Assembly (NCBI GenBank): GCA_020619395.1
Contig: GCA_020619395.1_4860.1
From: a phage
Reading direction: 5' to 3' (one strand)
Length of the DNA: 64,000 nt
Shown: positions 52,143 to 59,571 of the stretch, one piece after another
Numbering within the stretch: position 1 is the stretch's first letter
How the letters are laid out: each line of letters begins with the position of its first letter
Notes under the pieces: generated by a model
Database searches by the model: none
What the model was told of the DNA's origin: nothing
The model's input: the letters and a program-made list of their open reading frames with translations, nothing else
Made by a program: the position numbers and the translations under genes

Positions 52143-53090
52143 CTAACCAAACTGATTTTCATACGCACGGAGCCATTGCTCATGCGGGAATAAATTATAG
52201 ACCTCTTCGGGAACGTGTAACATCAGCCACCTCACGCCAATACTGCTCGCGTACCACGAAGCGTATGGATAGATTGAATCCTTCGGTGGTGCTAACGGTG
52301 ATGGTAACTGTTGAACATCGGTGACAGGGTTACCGATAACTTCACCGCCGGGTAGTACAGCCGCTAGCATCCAGGTCGTTGGGTAGTAATTACCGCTATC
52401 TGTTTTAGCCAGATAACGTAAGTCTAAGTTTTCTGGCTCGAGCTGTTTGCGTAACGTTAAGAACAGGCACAACTCAAACGGTGCGATGTTCAATCTGGTG
52501 TTCGGGAGACTGTGTCCTTTATACCAGTTTGCATAGCCTGCCTGGAGAGCGTGGATTGCCAGAATCGGTCTATCCACATCCACAGGTAACTGGAGCGGTG
52601 TAATGTTCAAATCAGCTACAGTTGGAAACATTACCGGTTCAGGATTGATAAGCTGGTTATACGCTTCCCGTAAACGATTCATCTTGATGCGCAATGCACC
52701 GTTCGTTAACATCAGCCTACGTCCGTGGTTTTCATCTGTAGCCCGTTCCGTAAAGAGTGCATCGCCGAAATGGCGAACGAATTCGATACTTAAGAACCTG
52801 GTGTGGTACGTAGGTGAGGTATACTCAATAAACTCGTTCTGTTGGAATCCGAAGTAGTGGAGCAATTCGCCGTTACCCCATTTGAACACAAATCGGAATT
52901 CGAAGTTCTTGTACTGTAGTGCATCTTTTACAGCACGTATCGCTTCCCAAGCGTCGAAATTCGTTCTGTATAACGAACCGAAAGGGAAGAATCTGCGAGG
53001 TAAGAAAGGTCGAATGCGGGTTGCTTCTGCGAGGCTGAAGCCATCCTGGTTTAATCCTTCAATAGCACTAGGATTACTTGGTCTGTACAT
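52143..53090 (-). CDS. hypothetical protein
   Basis: 315-aa ORF with promoter-like motif upstream (53150-53164). Confidence 0.55.
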   Translation of the reverse strand: MYRPSNPSAIEGLNQDGFSLAEATRIRPFLPRRFFPFGSLYRTNFDAWEAIRAVKDALQYKNFEFRFVFKWGNGELLHYFGFQQNEFIEYTSPTYHTRFLSIEFVRHFGDALFTERATDENHGRRLMLTNGALRIKMNRLREAYNQLINPEPVMFPTVADLNITPLQLPVDVDRPILAIHALQAGYANWYKGHSLPNTRLNIAPFELCLFLTLRKQLEPENLDLRYLAKTDSGNYYPTTWMLAAVLPGGEVIGNPVTDVQQLPSPLAPPKDSIYPYASWYASSIGVRWLMLHVPEEVYNLFPHEQWLRAYENQFG

Positions 53091-53149
53091 GATGCTTACC
53101 TTTTATAGTCGAGTTGGGGGAATTCAGATGAGGCTTTCTCATCTCACTT

Positions 53150-53164
53150 AGGTAATATCTATCT
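53150..53164. promoter_or_regulatory. GTAATATCTATCT promoter-like motif
   Basis: ggtaatatctatctg, 60-75 bp upstream of minus start 53090. Confidence 0.3.
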
Positions 53165-53180
53165 GTGAATATTTGGAATA

Positions 53181-53224
53181 CAAAAAAAAAATAAAAGAGT
53201 TGTCCTCACTCCGAAGAGTGAGGA
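53181..53224 (-). terminator. rho-independent terminator after CDS 53316..54137
   Basis: Hairpin 53201-53224 (gtcctcactc / cgaag / agtgaggac) with + strand A-run 53181-53196. Confidence 0.6.
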
Positions 53225-53315
53225 CTTCCCTGGTGTTGGCATGTAAATCTACAAGGTCTTACAAGGTCAGACGAGGGCTAATCGTCAGGAACATAGCTAC
53301 TGGGCGTTAGCTAAT

Positions 53316-54137
53316 TCAGCGAAGGACGTCGGTAGTCTTACCGTGAGAGTTAACCACGTAGACTTCGTCGCCTTTATAAAACAGTTCGTACAACGCACCG
53401 GTACTGATCTGGTTATCAGGATCGTATCCAGATTCTTCTTCGATGCACATTGCGCCAATCAGTTCATCGACTGACCGGTCGCCAGGGCGAGCGCCTTTTA
53501 AAACAGTAACAACAGACTCACCGTTAATCCACTGCGACTGCTCCTGGACACCAGTGAACTCGATAGATGGACCAGGCTCTAATTCGACTTGTTGCAGTTC
53601 TTCCTGAGTGTAGACAATGATCGCCATGTCGCTATCAGGAGATGGTTTGTACCAGCCTAATTTCTCTGGGGGAGTACCGAAACCAACGAGTTCGCCGCAG
53701 ATACTATCCATGGCTTCTGGTTCACATAAATTTGTCGCCAGTACCAAGATAGCATTGCCCTTATTATCTAGCACGTAGCTAATAAACTCGCGTGCGTTGC
53801 AGTTAAACACCTCGACCGTTTCCAAATCGGGGATAATAAGGTTGGGGAAAAGCTGCCGCAAATACGTGTGTGCATAAACCTGACTTTTATATAATCTGTG
53901 CGACCAGCTGCAGTAGTCAGACAAATGCATGGTGTTCGGATCAGGCACATCAGGGGCAACGCGTTTTAACCCCGGATTAAGGGCTAACTTTTCATCATCG
54001 ACAACAATGTCGAAGCGCTCGTTCTCGAGCATCTTTAACGCCTCGCGGAATACACGAGACTTACGGTCACCGATACGAACTTTTTCATGTTCGGTAATAA
54101 TGCGGTCACCATCAATTACACGTTTAACTGTAAACAT
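53316..54137 (-). CDS. hypothetical protein
   Basis: 273-aa ORF; last phage-type gene before the island. Confidence 0.55.
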   Translation of the reverse strand: MFTVKRVIDGDRIITEHEKVRIGDRKSRVFREALKMLENERFDIVVDDEKLALNPGLKRVAPDVPDPNTMHLSDYCSWSHRLYKSQVYAHTYLRQLFPNLIIPDLETVEVFNCNAREFISYVLDNKGNAILVLATNLCEPEAMDSICGELVGFGTPPEKLGWYKPSPDSDMAIIVYTQEELQQVELEPGPSIEFTGVQEQSQWINGESVVTVLKGARPGDRSVDELIGAMCIEEESGYDPDNQISTGALYELFYKGDEVYVVNSHGKTTDVLR

Positions 54138-54517
54138 GTTGCTTCCTTCTTACTACTATTGCTGCTTCTATTGGTAGTCCACGACATATCCCTCGTGGGT
54201 GGGTTCGGTGTGTAACCGAATAAGTTTTTCTGTTCCCAGGGCAACGCACCAGGCTTAATTGATTTAGTTGGCAAACCAGGAACAGAAAAGGGGTATACAG
54301 ACTAGGGCGCGAGGTGGCTCTGGATGGATGCGTAAGAAAAACCCAAACGGCCCTGGCCTGTAAGTTGGCCCGAAGTCACCGTGTCGGAGGACAGCCCATG
54401 CAGGTAGGCGGCAATGGACACGGTGACCGCGGAAGTGGTTCGTGTTACCCTTGACCCGTGTGTGGATACGCGTCTTAATTCGAATGCCTTCGGGATAAGG
54501 GTAACACAAATGGGGCG

Positions 54518-54661
54518 AGCAAACGGACGGATTCGAACCGTCGAAATATCCGATTATGAGTCGGGTGTTAATTCCTCTAACTTCGCTGCTCTTGCTTTGA
54601 CCGGACTCGAACCGGCGACCTTCCTCGAAGAGGTTGCTCTACCTACCTGAGCTACAAAGCC
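54518..54661 (-). ncRNA. two tandem degenerate tRNA-like elements
   Basis: Element 1 (about 54518-54595): D-arm GTTA/TAAC, anticodon-like arm CCCGA-CTCATAA-TCGGA (CAU loop), T-arm GACGG-TTCGAAT-CCGTC, acceptor pairing imperfect. Element 2 (54593-54661): acceptor GGCTTTG/CAAAGC, D-arm GCTC/GAGC, T-arm GCCGG-TTCGAGT-CCGGT, but anticodon arm and variable region too short. Confidence 0.3.
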
Positions 54662-55706
54662 ATTGTTCATGGCATCATGATAGTTACACTCAACGTACCA
54701 CACCCCTACTGGTTTCCGTTTCGGGGGACTTAACCAGACACCATACGTCCAAGGTCGACGCTTAGGTGTGTTATCAGTTGCCTGACTGGAAATCTCTTAC
54801 GAGACGTCTACGTTGAACCGGCAAGCCGGCCATGATGTGAAGATGGGGGAACGCCCAGGCTTCCGCCCAGTCGAGTGAGGTACGAATCCTTCACTCCTGT
54901 CATCACTGATGGTGACAGCGCTCCCATTGTAAGGTGCCGGTGCATCCCGGCGTGTGTTAGTGCACTCAGCTCCCTCGGGCTTATCTGCGGCAACACGTTG
55001 CCCGGAGCACCGACATATACCACAGTAACCTCGTAAAGTCACTCTGGTATTGTTCGTTGCATACTACTAAGTTATCACGTAAACGATTTCATCACTTCCA
55101 TAAATAATAATTAACCTAAATTCATTTCTGAATGCGGGTGATGGACTTCTTCTTCTGAGCCTGGCCGCAAGGTCAGGTCTTAGCGCCTCCAAGCACCACC
55201 CGCTATCACGTACATTCGTGGCGTACCGGCCGTATGAGGTACCGCGCCTACGGTGACACACAGTCACCCTAACACTGGGAACTCAATCCCATTCGGTTAT
55301 CAGATTGTGGATTTACAGGCGTAGCGTAGCGGCTTAATGGGCCGGTGCTTGCCTGTCCCCTAGGGACGGTTGTCGTGGAGACGCCAGTCTGTAAGTGGGG
55401 CCCTTGCGGGAAAACCCATCGCCTGTAAACCAAACATGATTGAATACCCAGAACCGGACGTTGGAAATCAACATCCTGATGTACTGGAGTATTTCATGCA
55501 TAAACGTGTCTCGTATCGAATGAGGTTATGACCGGTCAGATACCCAGCATCCTGTACAAGCGACCTGGTGCTTTGTGTACCTGGCTGCTACGGATTTATT
55601 GGTCTACCGTAGGTCTGAGCTGCTACCGGCTCATGCGGGACATCAACCCGCACAATCTGAGTAAGTATCATGGCTCGAATAGGGTTAGTGGGCCGAAGCC
55701 CACTGT

Positions 55707-55961
55707 TTAGCCAGCATTGAACGATTCATGAACGACGGTCCCAGCAGGATAGTGCGTAGTGCCGATAAGAGTAACGGTCAGGGTAAGCCCTTCATCCCAG
55801 CGCTCTTTCGGTAACCAGCGGCAGTCCATCCAATGACCACAGTCGGGAGGAATTGCACACGCAGCTTGCTCCGTAGGAGCCGCCACGATTATGGAATCAA
55901 ATTCATCATACCCGATATCGTCAGTTCGTTCTAGCAAGTACAAATTCATGTTGTTCTCCAA
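55707..55961 (-). CDS. small hypothetical protein carrying one copy of the repeated NLY...VVAA..EQAA module
   Basis: 84-aa ORF with GGAG Shine-Dalgarno upstream; N-terminus MNLYLLERTDDIGYDEFDSIIVAAPTEQAA resembles two segments of 56671..57246. Confidence 0.45.
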   Translation of the reverse strand: MENNMNLYLLERTDDIGYDEFDSIIVAAPTEQAACAIPPDCGHWMDCRWLPKERWDEGLTLTVTLIGTTHYPAGTVVHESFNAG

Positions 55962-56013
55962 CAGTTGACAAATCTGTGTCTTCTGTGTTGAACCTGAATT
56001 CGTTGGCTAAATG

Positions 56014-56089
56014 TGGCGGGGGCACGAGGTTTCGAACCTCGAACCTTCGGTTTTGGAGACCGGTGCGCTACCAATTGCGCCATACCCCC
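56014..56089 (-). tRNA. tRNA-Trp (anticodon CCA)
   Basis: Hand-folded 76-nt cloverleaf: acceptor GGGGGTA/TGCCCCC, U8, D-arm GCGC-AATTGGTA-GCGC, anticodon arm CCGGT-CTCCAAA-ACCGA (U33, CCA, A37), variable AGGTT, T-arm CGAGG-TTCGAAA-CCTCG, discriminator G, encoded CCA. Confidence 0.85.
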
Positions 56090-56182
56090 AGAATTCTTTA
56101 AACGTGTTTATACGGATGCGCTACCCCGTTATCGCAGGCGATTGATGGGGTCAAGCTTGCGTGCTTCTGACTCCCGCATGAT

Positions 56183-56674
56183 TCACCTCCGTAATTCGTA
56201 AGTGCTAATCTCACCACCGGTGTAGATATCGCATTCAGACGCAATCTCAATAGCACGAACCGCACTCGCGCCCATCTTCATCGCACCCAACGCATACTCG
56301 TAACCGCTTCCGGTTGCCAGAGGTGGTGTGGCTTCACTCCACCACAACGTCACGTCGTCTTCACGTTTTCCGCCGACTATCGCTTTTCCTGAGGCCAAAA
56401 GCATCAGGAAAGTAAAATCCATCTTCGCAGGTAACTGCGAGCTTTGTGTTAACCCCTTGTAGCCGGGTCTCAAGCGGACCGTTTCCAGCAGGGCCAACTG
56501 TCCTGTGATGTCACCGCTTACTCCGAACGCCACAATCCGTTCACCAGTAATCCACCACTCCTCGTCAGGAGGACAGACGAATAACTTCTGGGTATTCAGG
56601 TTGCAGATATTCGACCCACGGGTTAACTGGCCGTCAGCAGCTAAGACTTTTCCATCGAACGCTATCGTCGTCAT
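56183..56674 (-). CDS. HslV-like N-terminal-threonine peptidase (proteasome beta-type fold)
   Basis: Start at ATG 56674 (GAGGAAGG Shine-Dalgarno; ATGA overlap with the upstream stop) gives MTTIAFDGKVLAADGQLT... (cf. E. coli HslV [24 protein letters not shown]), plus GSGYEYALGAM (cf. GSGGPYAQAAA) and DIYTGGEISTYEL (cf. DICIYTNHFHTIEEL); recalled from the E. coli sequence. Confidence 0.65.
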   Translation of the reverse strand: MTTIAFDGKVLAADGQLTRGSNICNLNTQKLFVCPPDEEWWITGERIVAFGVSGDITGQLALLETVRLRPGYKGLTQSSQLPAKMDFTFLMLLASGKAIVGGKREDDVTLWWSEATPPLATGSGYEYALGAMKMGASAVRAIEIASECDIYTGGEISTYELRR

Positions 56675-57246
56675 TGGGCCACCTTCCTCGGTGTGTACTC
56701 GAATGTCGTTTCCGTCAGGTAATCCTGGCGCATCCAAGTCAGCTCCTGGCCTTGCTCACACTTGATGTTCGTAACCAAACCGGCTTCAAGTGGTAGCTCA
56801 CAGACCGAAACGATTCCGGGTTTATCACCGTCCCAATGTGCGAATGCCGCCTCGGGGGTTGTTGCCCCGACGATGATTCCGGCGTCGACATAGTCTTCGG
56901 TAGCGACGTCGCTGTAAACCAGGTACAGCTTGATGATCGACGGTTGCTTGGCTTGGTAGCCGAAGTACACTCTGGTTTTACCCGTGGTAAGATTCCAGGT
57001 GTGTCTGGCGGATTCGGAAACAAATTCCAAACCGGGATGGGAATAATCATCCCAACGGCCTTGCTTCAGAACCACCCCAGGCGTAACCATCGGGGTAGAC
57101 ACAGCGCCGTCGTAGCAGCACGCAACCGCTGGACGCTCTGCGCTAACCGGCCAGAAGGATTTGGCCTGCTCCTCGTTTTCGGCTAAGACAACCAAAACCG
57201 ATTCAGGCATCTCGTTTCGGTAAAACCCGACGCGATACAAGTTCAT
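56671..57246 (-). CDS. hypothetical protein with internally duplicated NLY/KLY...VV-A..EEQA/PEAA..W module
   Basis: 191-aa ORF with GGAG Shine-Dalgarno upstream; segments MNLYRVGFYRNEMPESVLVVLAENEEQAKSFW and KLYLVYSDVATEDYVDAGIIVGATTPEAAFAHW are similar to each other and to 55707..55961. Confidence 0.5.
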   Translation of the reverse strand: MNLYRVGFYRNEMPESVLVVLAENEEQAKSFWPVSAERPAVACCYDGAVSTPMVTPGVVLKQGRWDDYSHPGLEFVSESARHTWNLTTGKTRVYFGYQAKQPSIIKLYLVYSDVATEDYVDAGIIVGATTPEAAFAHWDGDKPGIVSVCELPLEAGLVTNIKCEQGQELTWMRQDYLTETTFEYTPRKVAQ

Positions 57247-58164
57247 GGTTTAATTCTCCGTTTGGTTTATCATACCTCACGCAGAATCTGTAAATTTTAA
57301 TCAGCCAGGTACCGTCGTTTCTCAACGGGAGTACCCACCCCTCTCGTCTATTCCGAGCCGTCAAGATCCGATCACCCCACTTTGGAGTTATCCCCCAAGT
57401 CTGCGGTTCTACACGCAGACCCCTTTTCGACGCAACGCCGAATTCGAATCAGTTTTGGCCCGACGCCAGAGCGGAATCAGCGATAACTATCGGAGGTAAG
57501 TTCAACGACGTCTCTCCGCTGCCCAGTCCTCTGGCGCTGCCACGGTCAACTCGGATTTTGTCATGGGTGCGCAGTCGACTTTCTCGACACTCTCGCAAAC
57601 CGAACTACGCCCGACGTAGCACCGTCGGCAGGTCGGTTATTTACCGAGTACCTGAATGGGTGGTGATTGTCGGAATCCCCGCCGACGCTCACCGGTTCTG
57701 TTCCACGGCGAAAGTTTTCCAGAACATAATAAATCACGCAGTGTTAGATTGCGCTTTGTCGAAGACACCACGGTAGGTATTTTCGAAAAAGCGTCCTGGG
57801 TATCAGTCCCAGGACTTGGAGCCCTAGCGTGCAGGGTTTAAAAGTGATTGGACCATTGGCGCGGTCAATCGCTATTCGCATATAACAACAAACTCACGTA
57901 ATCAAAAAATTACCGGCTCGAGGCGTAGGCGTCCAGGAGCCGGTGAGTCACACAGCAGTGAGTCCCTCTGCGGGGATTTTCGTGGAGCTTGTCGTTGGAA
58001 TAAAAATCCGTCCCCGGACGGGTTGGTGTTGTGGGTCGACTTGTCAGAGTCTACCGACCAGGGAGGCGACCACCGAAGCTATGGGTTTTGGACATCGAGT
58101 GGTGGTCTGAACACACGATAGGGAAACCACGTAAAAAATACACAGGGTACCCAAACTAGGACTT

Positions 58165-58600
58165 CCGTCCGATCACGATCTCTTAATAAGGATCACGCGC
58201 GCGCCTGCACGCGTTTTAAGATCTTAATATATTAATATATTTATTTATATAAATAATTATAATAATTAAATATAATACCTAAAGGTATTATTATATTTAA
58301 TATTATTATATATCTTTTAAAAGATCCTGGAGGATACGGGTGTGCGCACGCGCACGCGTATAAGGAAAGGGTCTTCGACCCGATCCACAGGATCAATCTA
58401 AAAAACAATCTAAGTGATTGTTTTAAAAAGAAATTTTGAGAATTAGATTAAATTATCCCCTAAGGGGGATTTTAGAGCGAGTTAAACAACCCAAAGAACT
58501 CGTAAGTAACCGACAGTGTGTGTCGGTTACAGAACGATCCAGTTTTCACCCAGACATGGCACGAAGTGCTACCCAACGTGTGATCGTCGTCGCCGGCCGC
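58165..58600. other. origin/unwinding-element-like region: AT-rich core flanked by alternating CG tracts, GATC cluster, direct repeats and palindromes
   Basis: About 110-bp core with over 90% A+T (58213-58320) between cacgcgcgcgcctgcacgcg and gtgtgcgcacgcgcacgcg; 9 GATC at 58171, 58177, 58191, 58220, 58323, 58382, 58391, 58536, 58582; caatcta direct repeats 58393 and 58406; palindromes 58454-58470 and 58506-58530. Confidence 0.3.
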
Positions 58601-58958
58601 GACCGTCGTCCCGGAACCGAAACGGGAATGGCACTCTCGCGCTCTCAGCGGCCCGCTGGCGCGATTTTCCGGTATGGGGAACCCAAGTGTACTGGGTCTG
58701 AGTTAAATCTCGTTCTAGCGCTTTCTAGAGCGTTTTTAATAACTGGTTAAAAAACATACAATCCTGAATCCCCATTCCCTGAATTTCCTCGCCCCGACAA
58801 AAATAAATTCTCTGTCTCGATACATAACCCCCTCTAAAACGCACGTAACCGACCCTAGAAAACGATAAACTGCCAAAAACGAGCTACCCTACGTCGATAC
58901 CACCTAATCGTTTTCTGATGCTTCCCAGACCCCTTTAACCGGTTGGTTAAAAAGTAAC

Positions 58959-59009
58959 CAAAAAAATAAAAAAAAATAAGATTGGCGTACTCCCCGAAGA
59001 GAGTACGCC
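58959..59009 (-). terminator. rho-independent terminator after CDS 59017..59571
   Basis: Hairpin 58984-59009 (ggcgtactc / cccgaaga / gagtacgcc) with a long + strand A-run 58959-58980. Confidence 0.6.
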
Positions 59010-59016
59010 TAGTGAC

Positions 59017-59571
59017 TTAACACTTGATGGTGTAGCCATCAAGGCCAAGGTGTACTGGTTTTATCCATAACCCTGGCTCCCCGAAAATATTCAGGTCGTA
59101 AGTTTGGTAATGCATGATCTTTGCAGGAACATGCACACCCATGCGTTGCAGAAATTCCCAGACGGCGACGTAGCGTTCACGAGTGATGAACATTAGCCCG
59201 GAGTCGAACCCGGAACCGATGTCTAGGAAATTACCAAGAGAACTGTCAAAACTTGACACCCCATCTTGAGTAAGTGCGACCAACCCTTTAGTTAAATCTC
59301 TGTGGTTGTCAATGAAGTTACAGAGATCTACGATGGTTATTTGACCGTAAATACGACGGAGGACGGCAGCAACAGCCAAAATCTCGCTGGTATTTCCGTA
59401 GTCACCTAAAGGGTTATGGTCCATCATCGCAGTAATTATGCTTGTGTCGCAGAGGTCGATTAACCGCTGGTCATGTACCACCAGGTTAAGACCTTGCCCC
59501 ACCTGCACGGTTGGCGCAGTAAACATAGGAGGCTCCTTACGTTTTGACTGACTGTGAAGGTACTCTGGCAT
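59017..59571 (-). CDS. hypothetical protein
   Basis: 184-aa ORF with terminator immediately downstream. Confidence 0.55.
   Translation of the reverse strand: MPEYLHSQSKRKEPPMFTAPTVQVGQGLNLVVHDQRLIDLCDTSIITAMMDHNPLGDYGNTSEILAVAAVLRRIYGQITIVDLCNFIDNHRDLTKGLVALTQDGVSSFDSSLGNFLDIGSGFDSGLMFITRERYVAVWEFLQRMGVHVPAKIMHYQTYDLNIFGEPGLWIKPVHLGLDGYTIKC

Follow-up and report, generated by a model that had tools for sequence, protein, structure and literature searches.

The window analysed here is a stretch of 64,000 nucleotides (nt) of phage DNA (GenBank assembly GCA_020619395.1, contig GCA_020619395.1_4860.1), and the subject of this report is the gene-poor region at its positions 54138–59016. This region is likely to represent an ancestral operon of transfer RNA (tRNA) genes and structured RNAs of the SPN3US-like jumbo phages, together with the control region upstream of it, rather than an acquired island. 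Taken as a whole, the locus appears to belong to the phage tRNA clusters, a type of feature that is already known. The region shares 96–99% identity with SPN3US-type jumbo phages (Seoulvirus) of Salmonella, Escherichia and Proteus, and the window is assigned by this similarity to an SPN3US-like jumbo phage of that genus. A 98% identical relative, SPLA5c, served for genome-wide comparisons; in its 239 kb genome, the locus lies 3.4 kb from a terminase large-subunit gene and ∼12 kb from a DNA polymerase gene. Positions are those of the window unless another record is named, with (−) and (+) denoting the strand.

A sequence-only reading of the window had described the region as a coding-poor accessory island bounded by phage-type terminators. 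The scarcity of genes is confirmed: 54141–55706 and 57247–59016 contain no long open reading frame (ORF), with nothing longer than 84 amino acids (aa) in the ORF list. A greedy ORF map gives the window a coding density of ∼89%, with intergenic gaps of no more than 355 base pairs (bp) outside the region compared with ∼1.57 kb (54138–55706) and 1.77 kb (57247–59016) within it; the former is interrupted only by one spurious plus-strand ORF that overlies the tRNA-like genes. The two bounding terminators are also present, both on the minus strand (59009–58984 and 53225–53202), and each comprises a GC-rich hairpin and a U-run. The intrinsic terminator at 58959–59009(−), in which a UUCG-capped hairpin with an 11 bp stem (seven GC pairs) precedes the U-run, ends the preceding operon and forms the upstream boundary of the locus. 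The other, at 53202–53225(−), is the next intrinsic terminator on the minus strand and lies just beyond the region. A conserved ORF of 55 aa at 55334–55501(−), discussed below, had been overlooked.

In each related genus that was sampled, the genes flanking the locus are the same and enclose homologous DNA that is just as poor in genes. Distant BLASTN searches with each noncoding half of the region recovered homologous blocks from other genera of Erwinia jumbo phages. The locus is found in the Erskinevirus members phiEaH2, Asesino and Stratton, in the Machinavirus members Machina, Caitlin, ChrisDB, Huxley and pEa_SNUABM_9, in Wellington/Kwan and in the divergent Seoulviruses SPAsTU and pEa_SNUABM_29; IMG/VR and metagenome contigs supply additional lineages. 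In the annotated loci of these relatives the flanking genes occur in identical order and two long gene-free stretches are present in each. The whole block occupies the same position in all related genera and only its internal tRNA and ORF content differs. In relatives, the first gap accommodates 6–16 tandem tRNA genes. Compared with SPAsTU, the window has cleanly deleted tRNA-Tyr, Glu, Asp, Ile and Gln at the junction 54930/54932, and a further deletion near 54510–54529 has removed tRNA-Asn. Thus, where relatives carry the tandem canonical tRNAs that characterize a phage tRNA cluster, the window has one intact tRNA gene (tRNA-Trp) and two defective tRNA-like genes, and appears to hold a degenerate member of the tRNA cluster of the clade. 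The locus looks empty because this lineage has lost most of its tRNAs. Among close relatives, SPN3US has a 257 bp deletion and phage 1252 an insertion of ∼600 bp, both within 54141–55706. A separate peculiarity concerns the SPFM records LR535903–LR535908, LR535911–LR535913 and LR535917, which match in ∼26 pieces of ∼60 nt per 1.5 kb, at 98–99% identity and on the unexpected strand; it looks as if each 60 nt line had been scrambled or reversed as a formatting artefact.

The idea of a horizontally acquired accessory island, i.e. foreign DNA with a tRNA, a protease gene and noncoding sequence that was inserted as a cassette between phage gene blocks, finds some encouragement in the scarcity of genes, the presence of a tRNA and the indels that make the internal content differ among close relatives. 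The GC content is also slightly raised, at 50.6% for the region against 48.8% for the window (38–52% for other intergenic DNA). The noncoding blocks do reach 51–54%, whereas the 58–63% derived from hand counts in the sequence-only reading reflects local peaks. However, the locus and its flanks are syntenic across all related genera and the dinucleotide signature is no outlier, with a Karlin δ* of 0.061 compared with 0.041 ± 0.015 for genome windows, 12% of which deviate as much or more. In agreement with the sequence-only reading, neither an integrase nor a transposase was found, and no Pfam domain was matched by the six ORFs scanned in or beside the region. The region has no match in E. coli genomes. 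A plasmid search matched 24 records; among the eight listed, seven match the tRNA-Trp gene and one is a likely phage record, and nothing else is matched among them. Exact-motif scans show that two of the RNA elements described below (B1 and the 3′ domain of RNA unit A) are confined to this phage clade, with no match to the B1 motif in ∼100,000 bacterial and archaeal species genomes; about half of the pattern matches in metagenomes were judged to be chance and were discarded. A foreign origin for the region is therefore extremely improbable. The unremarkable composition and the homologous, equally coding-poor DNA in relatives instead point to a conserved RNA locus, although most of its structured RNAs are not known ones. 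The other possibility raised earlier, a dedicated RNA/replication locus, is supported in its RNA part, as a tRNA operon with additional covarying RNAs, and its replication part comes down to the candidate AT/GATC site considered below. A phage-like plasmid record, NZ_CP134650.1 (Enterobacter ludwigii, 222 kb), contains three blocks ∼80% identical to the region at its positions 87193–89012; it is filed as a non-mobilizable plasmid and is probably a related jumbo phage or phage-plasmid.

RNA unit A, which runs from 55659 to 55134(−) and measures ∼525 nt in the window, forms one conserved unit of 520–590 nt in an alignment of ∼14 distinct lineages that are 50–90% identical. Its 5′ domain (55502–55659(−), ∼155 nt) begins with a hairpin, P1 (loop YUGRURU), followed by a multi-helix junction with an optional variable hairpin, the 7 bp helix P2 (loop CAnACCnnUAAGY) and a two-part helix P3 around the conserved sequence ACAAAGCAC. 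RNAalifold predicts 28 pairs in this domain, 20 of which show compensatory changes. In a pair-count test, 93.1% of cells were paired compared with 71.7% in shuffled alignments (0 of 500 shuffles as high), and the covariation score was 0.651 compared with 0.232 after shuffling and no more than 0.11 for slid partners. A helix ACGG/CCGU that closes the junction can be seen by eye and is not scorable, since the Erskinevirus rows are offset by one column. G–U pairs in the 5′ domain, as well as in B1, assign the RNA to the minus strand.

The 3′ domain (55134–55432(−), ∼300 nt) has a core shared by all genera from near position 55353 and includes the invariant blocks CAAGCACCGG, UAAGCCG, CACAAUCUGA, AUGGGAUURAGUUCC, GGUGCUUGGAG and GAAGAAGUCCAUC. 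Covariation is seen in the terminal helix and in three hairpins, and of the 50 pairs predicted for the domain 16 show compensatory changes. A long-range helix between UUACAGGCG and CGCCUGUAA and a pairing of CAAGCACC with GGUGCUUG, though plausible, were excluded from the supported structure. In Asesino and phiEaH2 the tRNA array begins 7 nt past the 3′ end of RNA unit A; the first tRNA lies within ∼180 nt of it in six other relatives and at ∼500 nt in Machina, where an annotated ORF intervenes. In nhmmer searches the 5′ domain, the 3′ domain and B1 were found in every locus of the clade that spans their position and never more than once per locus. In five more distant loci (L025–L029) neither BLAST nor nhmmer detected a copy of the RNAs, and the 80 aa ORF of the operon is 36–58% identical there over the matched segment. 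Within the 3′ domain, a module GGCGCGGUACCUCAUACGGCCGGUACGCC of 29–34 nt (55220–55248(−)) is nearly identical in the window, Asesino and loci L015, L024, L032 and L053, while the sister phages SPAsTU, phiEaH2, pEa_SNUABM_9 and Machina have unrelated sequence in its place. This patchy distribution across genera suggests exchange by recombination.

Between the two domains, and overlapping the second, lies the small ORF (55334–55501(−), 55 aa, MHEILQYIRMLISNVRFWVFNHVWFTGDGFSRKGPTYRLASPRQPSLGDRQAPAH), which matches phrog_26199 with an E value of 1e-4. It is intact, in the same frame and 55–69 aa long in all 15 lineages examined, and its frame alone gives full-length tblastn matches between genera, with 33–39% aa identity. 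In some relatives it is annotated as a hypothetical protein. Synonymous codon changes relative to SPAsTU are seen in its N-terminal half, which evolves in the manner of a protein. Its final 33 codons are shared with the 3′ domain; the overlap is 100% identical to SPAsTU and the N-terminal half is more divergent, which points to a constraint at the RNA level on top of coding.

The small ORF also bears on the possibility that the gaps conceal unannotated protein-coding genes. One real small ORF had indeed been missed here, and several small 'hypothetical proteins' are annotated in the gaps of relatives. Outside the small ORF, however, six-frame tblastn searches show the same level of conservation in every frame and on either strand, which implies a constraint on nucleotides rather than on codons, and no other ORF holds its frame across lineages. 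Hidden genes are thus a very unlikely explanation of the gaps.

The upstream half of the locus, region B (58958 to 57247 on the minus strand), leads to the second conserved RNA. Only Seoulvirus lineages align throughout it, with 68–71% identity, and six-frame tblastn revealed no reading frame that is preferentially conserved. From ∼58590 to 57300 the sequence is rich in conserved hairpins, with z scores of approximately −2 to −9 for the alignment fold against column shuffles. The last ∼170 nt, the conserved leader domain (57301–57470(−)), is conserved in all genera and consists of the B1 core and an additional upstream covarying hairpin with the conserved loop UGUAGAAC. B1 itself (57301–57367, ∼70 nt) comprises an invariant 28-mer, UCUUGGCGGCUCGGAAAGACGAGAGGGG, followed by a covarying hairpin with a GNRA loop. 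Nine of its 18 pairs show compensatory changes; 97.7% of cells were paired in the pair-count test against 84.3% in shuffled alignments, and the covariation score of 0.467 compares with 0.21 after shuffling and at most 0.13 in slid controls. B1 is always located 17 to ∼60 nt upstream of the first ORF of the operon, whichever gene this is: the 191 aa ORF here, different genes in SPAsTU, Machina and ChrisDB, and the HslV-like gene in Asesino and Caitlin. Since the first gene changes while B1 stays fixed, its function would be that of a leader at the operon level, for example a processivity or antitermination RNA or one that binds a regulator.

Upstream of the leader domain, a GC-rich structured noncoding stretch (57471–58160(−)) is conserved mainly within Seoulvirus, with stems kept in SPAsTU and pEa_SNUABM_29. 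It contains three units of a hairpin and a U-run (58008–58021, 57904–57943 and 57793–57815), which are candidate small RNAs or attenuators; a terminator scan found 14 terminator-like sites against 7.1 ± 2.8 expected. Between the same phage pairs (e.g. SPFM4 and SPLA1a), region B differs by ∼5% and the half with the tRNAs and RNA unit A by 0.3–0.6%, and region B is therefore locally a hotspot for divergence or recombination.

Downstream of the tRNA array, the post-array structured region (54141–54517(−)) consists of a series of long hairpins, with a fold z score of −5.8 (0 of 100 shuffles). Hairpin 1 (UGUGUUACCC...GGGUAACACG) is conserved across genera in BLAST comparisons. In a three-lineage alignment the outer stem of hairpin 2 is fully compensated in SPAsTU and pEa_SNUABM_29, and its 22 nt apex, GCCGCCUACCUGCAUGGGCUG, is invariant.

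The remnant of the array between these hairpins and RNA unit A (55133 to 54518 on the minus strand) contains three elements. X87 (54844–54925(−)) is a predicted RNA of 82 nt whose four-way junction resembles a cloverleaf. Its identity is 95% with SPAsTU and 90.6% with Asesino, in which it is situated between tRNA-Ile and tRNA-His, and it is better conserved than its surroundings. Its fold has 28 pairs, five of them compensatory and none broken in four lineages, and a 6 bp stem with a GGAA tetraloop occupies the position of the T arm. X87 has no covariance match to tRNA, selenocysteine tRNA (tRNA-Sec) or transfer-messenger RNA (tmRNA) at E ≤ 10. The 257 bp deletion has removed it from SPN3US, and an encoded 3′ CCA is missing in pEa_SNUABM_29 and is not claimed as a feature. 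The other two elements are the tRNA-like genes of the sequence-only reading, both of which match the Rfam tRNA model: 54592–54661(−) with 40.9 bits and 54518–54589(−) with 30.6 bits (RF00005; gathering threshold of 29). The first has canonical acceptor, D and T arms, with the anticodon arm replaced by a CCUC-UUCG-GAGG hairpin; it is rejected by ARAGORN and, judging from the UUCG tetraloop in place of an anticodon loop, cannot decode. The counterpart in SPN3US has the loop UUUG, and SPAsTU has a 50 nt insertion at this point. The element may be a pseudogene or, possibly, a processing 'punctuation' element that provides a cleavage signal. The second is a relic of a tRNA-Met/Ile2(CAU) with three mismatches in the acceptor stem; ARAGORN makes no call, and its homologue in pEa_SNUABM_29 is annotated as tRNA-Ile2. 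In Asesino (locus L006, 4378–4498) and Machina (locus L012, 5305–5401), genes annotated as 'tRNA-Ile(aat)' are oddly long (121 and 97 nt, respectively) and may be further noncanonical or intron-containing tRNA-like RNAs.

The state of the array invites the view that the region is mostly decaying DNA, in which a wrecked tRNA array is accompanied by dead genes and the hairpins are mere terminators or neutral leftovers. Most tRNAs are gone, the two remnants look defective, the 257 bp deletion and the ∼600 bp insertion among close relatives both fall in 54141–55706, and region B is 5% divergent among phages that are otherwise 99% identical. Against this view, RNA unit A, B1 and the post-array hairpins persist across genera in which the blocks are only 50–70% identical; compensatory changes are plentiful there, and there are unpaired nucleotides that never vary. 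RNA unit A is wholly retained (98–100% within the lineage) despite the loss of the tRNAs downstream of it, and the small ORF has been kept in 15 lineages. Decay as the main explanation is accordingly unlikely, and an ancestral operon of tRNAs and structured RNAs remains the reading that we prefer.

The RNAs of this operon do not correspond to catalogued families. A search with cmscan against the Rfam 15 covariance models (E ≤ 10 over 53000–59500, repeated with laxer filters over 55100–55700) gave only tRNA matches above the gathering threshold, and thus none that would place RNA unit A, B1 or any of the post-array hairpins in a family; the best other match, to the L17 leader (E = 1, 22 bits compared with a gathering threshold of 34.9), falls at the GGCGCGGUACCUCAUACGGCCGGUACGCC module and is at chance level. 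Likenesses seen by eye to RNase P CR-I, the signal recognition particle RNA, tmRNA, the twister and hammerhead ribozymes and group I introns were dropped for want of a model match or of a required partner sequence. At least three RNA elements of the locus therefore combine strong covariation with no Rfam counterpart. The full-text literature on SPN3US-like and jumbo phages that was searched makes no mention of these RNAs and holds no specific transcriptome or noncoding-RNA data. A bolder proposal, which we regard as speculative, is that RNA unit A and B1 constitute new functional RNA classes of this clade and that the AT/GATC element marks the replication origin or packaging start of these phages. 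On the same speculative footing, RNA unit A might be an ornate catalytic or ligand-sensing RNA, or the scaffold of a ribonucleoprotein formed with its basic small protein, and its role could conceivably be comparable to that of the GOLLD and ROOL RNAs in a dual coding/noncoding format.

Between B1 and RNA unit A, the operon contains three protein-coding genes and the intact tRNA. The first ORF (56671–57246(−), 191 aa) is restricted to the SPN3US-type lineage; it has no homologue at the locus in other genera and other phages place different genes in this slot. It is followed by the HslV-family peptidase-like gene (56183–56674(−)), noted in the sequence-only reading and supported by a match to phrog_1040 (E = 4.5e-38), which is present at the locus in nine relatives from three genera. 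The canonical tRNA-Trp(CCA) that had been recognized at 56014–56089(−) scores 65.6 bits. A conserved 80 aa ORF (55707–55949(−), phrog_5444) completes this part, and a UUCG-capped hairpin at 55687–55704 after it lacks a U-run.

A terminator scan of the minus strand found no terminator-like site between 57793 and 53225. With no terminator in between, a single transcription unit probably extends from B1 through the ORFs, tRNA-Trp, RNA unit A, what is left of the array, the post-array hairpins and the next gene to the terminator at 53202–53225. The proposed order on the minus strand is then the terminator of the previous operon, a spacer of ∼0.55 kb, the unique AT/GATC DNA element, a hairpin-rich leader of ∼0.7 kb with three terminator-like units, B1, the variable ORF, the HslV-like peptidase gene, tRNA-Trp, the 80 aa ORF, the ∼525 nt composite RNA, the tRNA array, the post-array hairpins, the following gene and its terminator. 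The unit would be transcribed as a single precursor, in which ribonuclease P (RNase P) and RNase Z would cut at the tRNAs and tRNA-like elements and thereby free the flanking stable RNAs. The 5′ domain of RNA unit A may act in cis on the small ORF in the manner of a riboswitch or a protein-binding leader. Clean deletions (judged against SPAsTU) have stripped the array of most of its tRNAs (Tyr, Glu, Asp, Ile, Gln and Asn), leaving tRNA-Trp, the anticodon-less tRNA-like RNA, the tRNA(CAU) relic and the non-tRNA RNA X87.

Transcription in these phages is by multisubunit RNA polymerases of their own, with short AT-rich motifs as early promoters (PMC7598289). In the window, a motif AGATAATATC(T/A)ATCT occurs six times on the plus strand (28916, 32659, 34075, 42182, 42275 and 50185), always in one orientation and typically 35–130 nt upstream of the rare plus-strand genes. 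SPLA5c has six exact copies of its core, GATAATATCTATCT, again all in one orientation, and the motif is probably the consensus of the phage early (virion RNA polymerase) promoter. A near-consensus copy, GGTAATATCTATCTG, at 53149–53170(+) points into the minus-strand gene 53316–54137 and could give rise to an antisense transcript across the terminator at 53202–53225. A scan for σ70 promoters found fewer sites than expected by chance. One σ70-like site directly follows RNA unit A at 55104–55132(−), with TTCAGA, a 17 nt spacer and TATTAT; SPAsTU and pEa_SNUABM_29 have a better −10 box (TATAAT) there, and the promoter is not conserved in other genera. Such a site could allow the host polymerase to transcribe the tRNA array. 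Four candidates for general promoter motifs (TTTTTAACCA, TTTTTTACGTG, TTACGTG and TTAC..AGTNKTRTG) were rejected because they are not enriched at gene starts.

The far upstream part of region B differs in kind from the RNAs discussed so far. The distal spacer (58401–58958(−)) can be aligned over its full length only within Seoulvirus and has little conserved structure before ∼58590. A motif in it, TCTTTTTAAAACAnnnACTTA (58411–58431), is present as a single copy in the genome, is conserved in all genera and appears promoter-like. Next to it is the AT-rich/GATC element (58161–58400), which proved more extreme than the sequence-only reading had claimed: a core of ∼100 bp with 94% AT and a small hairpin at its centre has alternating CGCG/CACG tracts and GATC sites to either side. 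The next AT-richest 100 bp in the SPLA5c genome has 75% AT. Seven GATC sites fall within 225 bp (58171–58395), four on one side of the core and three on the other, forming a single cluster that is the densest in the SPLA5c genome, where the runner-up has four. GATC is otherwise depleted to ∼0.55 of expectation (139 sites against 249 expected in the window and 495 against 932 in SPLA5c), and the probability that chance would produce such a cluster anywhere in the window is ∼4e-4. The layout recurs in every genus: the single-copy AT-rich motif precedes a GC hairpin that varies, next come an alternating-GC tract and CAGGATCTTTTAAAAG, and beyond the AT core, which contains small hairpins, lie another alternating-GC tract and CGCGTGATCCTTATTAAGAGATC. 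Hardly any variation is seen in CAGGATCTTTTAAAAG between genera, and most genera also keep CGCGTGATCCTTATTAAGAGATC. This architecture hints at a cis-acting DNA site, a candidate replication origin or packaging (pac) site. To our knowledge, neither a replication origin nor a packaging start has been defined for these jumbo phages, and the full-text literature on SPN3US-like and jumbo phages that was searched contains no paper describing either.

If region B were primarily a replication origin, the promoter-like motif would fire through the GC-clamped flanks into the 100 bp AT-rich unwinding element, possibly with priming by an R-loop as in the T4 origins oriF and oriG, where an R-loop primes synthesis, and the GATC sites would couple firing to Dam methylation. 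The uniqueness in the genome of both the AT maximum and the GATC cluster, the conservation of the architecture in all genera (including the single-copy AT-rich motif ∼80 nt upstream) and the distance of ∼12 kb to a DNA polymerase gene are consistent with such a site. Initiator-binding repeats are lacking: there are no iterons, the pair of flanking GC tracts being the sole repeat, and a DnaA-box scan found no cluster at the element. The cumulative GC skew of SPLA5c is monotonic, follows gene orientation and has no inflection at the site, which is uninformative rather than contradictory. The primacy of an origin function in region B is thus a possibility that we advance only tentatively.

A P1-like pac site, at which Dam clusters on either side of a cleavage region would gate the first terminase cut of headful packaging, appears doubtful. 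The arrangement of four and three GATC sites around a ∼100 bp core recalls P1 pac, with its 4 + 3 Dam hexamers; the terminase large-subunit gene is 3.4 kb away and a phage DNA methyltransferase is annotated (in SPLA5c at 110468–111262). Several independent GenBank assemblies, moreover, have their first base within the AT core or at its edge, at positions corresponding to 58221–58293 and 58430 of the window. These starts fit real DNA ends and assembly breaks within an extreme-AT palindrome equally well. The GATC sites lack the P1 consensus TGATC(A/G), and the Machinavirus members pEa_SNUABM_9, ChrisDB and Caitlin keep just one to three GATC around the conserved core. The genomes of this phage group are reported to be circularly permuted without a defined end, which also argues against such a site. 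From these features, a replication origin consisting of a promoter and an unwinding element appears somewhat more likely than a methylation-gated pac site of the P1 type.

The missing DnaA boxes and iterons and the uninformative skew also weigh on the overall interpretation of the region as an RNA operon with an upstream control region, and they are joined by several further observations. No promoter could be identified in the region, and AGATAATATCTATCT, a recurrent early-promoter-like motif with six copies elsewhere in the window, is absent from it; we infer the boundaries, processing and stability of the transcript from sequence. For the greater part of region B the alignment has just three divergent lineages, and the hairpins score alike on both strands; they may therefore act at the DNA level. 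In the 3′ domain of RNA unit A, the UUACAGGCG/CGCCUGUAA helix and the CAAGCACC/GGUGCUUG pairing are invariant or genus-specific and thus beyond the reach of covariation. Close relatives lack X87 and the tRNA-like elements or have them in altered form, and these elements may be dispensable or decaying.

A close parallel for the operon is the tRNA region of T4, a cluster with embedded stable RNAs (species 1 and 2, or band C and D). As it stands in relatives, the locus shares with it the tandem co-oriented tRNAs; interleaved non-tRNA RNAs, presumably freed by tRNA-processing enzymes, are another common trait, and, as in other phage tRNA clusters, the tRNA content varies between related phages. 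In contrast to T4, the extra RNAs are far larger here (the ∼525 nt composite) and include a small ORF, and the tRNAs have mostly been deleted in this lineage; the T4 RNAs would not be expected to be similar in sequence. Two elements of the array remnant also recall tRNA-like processing elements, such as those of the mascRNA type or those of the mitochondrial 'tRNA punctuation' model: 54592–54661 keeps acceptor, D and T arms without an anticodon loop, X87 keeps an acceptor-like stem and a four-way junction, and both occupy tRNA positions in the array. Since close relatives have altered forms of both or have lost them, simple decay to pseudogenes is no less likely.

Unwinding elements that are rich in AT and have GATC clusters are known from E. 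coli oriC and T4 oriF/oriG, and the pac site of phage P1 offers a similar comparison. The AT/GATC element resembles these in being unique, in its extreme-AT core with a flanking GATC cluster and in its conserved architecture; it differs in lacking DnaA boxes, iterons and the P1 hexamer consensus, and in its flanking alternating-GC tracts, which are no feature of those sites.

Operon-leader RNAs that act on RNA polymerase or on regulators include HK022 put, the boxA/B/C leader of rrn operons and riboswitch-type 5′ leaders. B1 is similarly compact, with an invariant core and a covarying hairpin just upstream of the first ORF, a likeness of position only; unlike them, it has no sequence or model similarity to any Rfam leader. 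Given that jumbo phages have multisubunit RNA polymerases of their own (PMC7598289), any mechanism by which B1 acts would be phage-specific.

GOLLD and ROOL are multi-junction RNAs of ∼0.5–0.8 kb that are often encoded by phages or prophages next to tRNAs, with which they are possibly cotranscribed (PMC5737381). RNA unit A belongs to the same size class and shares the setting beside tRNAs in a phage, a resemblance of context only. In contrast to GOLLD and ROOL, it matches neither of their covariance models, even when E values up to 10 and lax filters are allowed, its carriers are jumbo phages of Enterobacterales rather than Firmicutes or rumen organisms, and it is interrupted and overlapped by a conserved coding ORF.

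Recognition of the region as an ancestral locus removes the false lead of a foreign island and replaces it with testable objects, in a phage family that serves as a genetic model and a candidate for therapy. Large conserved phage RNAs near tRNAs, such as GOLLD and ROOL, have long been puzzling, and a tractable example in a Salmonella or Erwinia phage would help. The locus also shows the ongoing erosion of a tRNA array, with clean deletions, an anticodon-less scaffold and a defective tRNA, which bears on how phages retain or lose their tRNAs. Finally, a DNA site that is present once per genome and conserved across genera provides a specific coordinate at which the question of the replication origin or the packaging start of these phages can be addressed.

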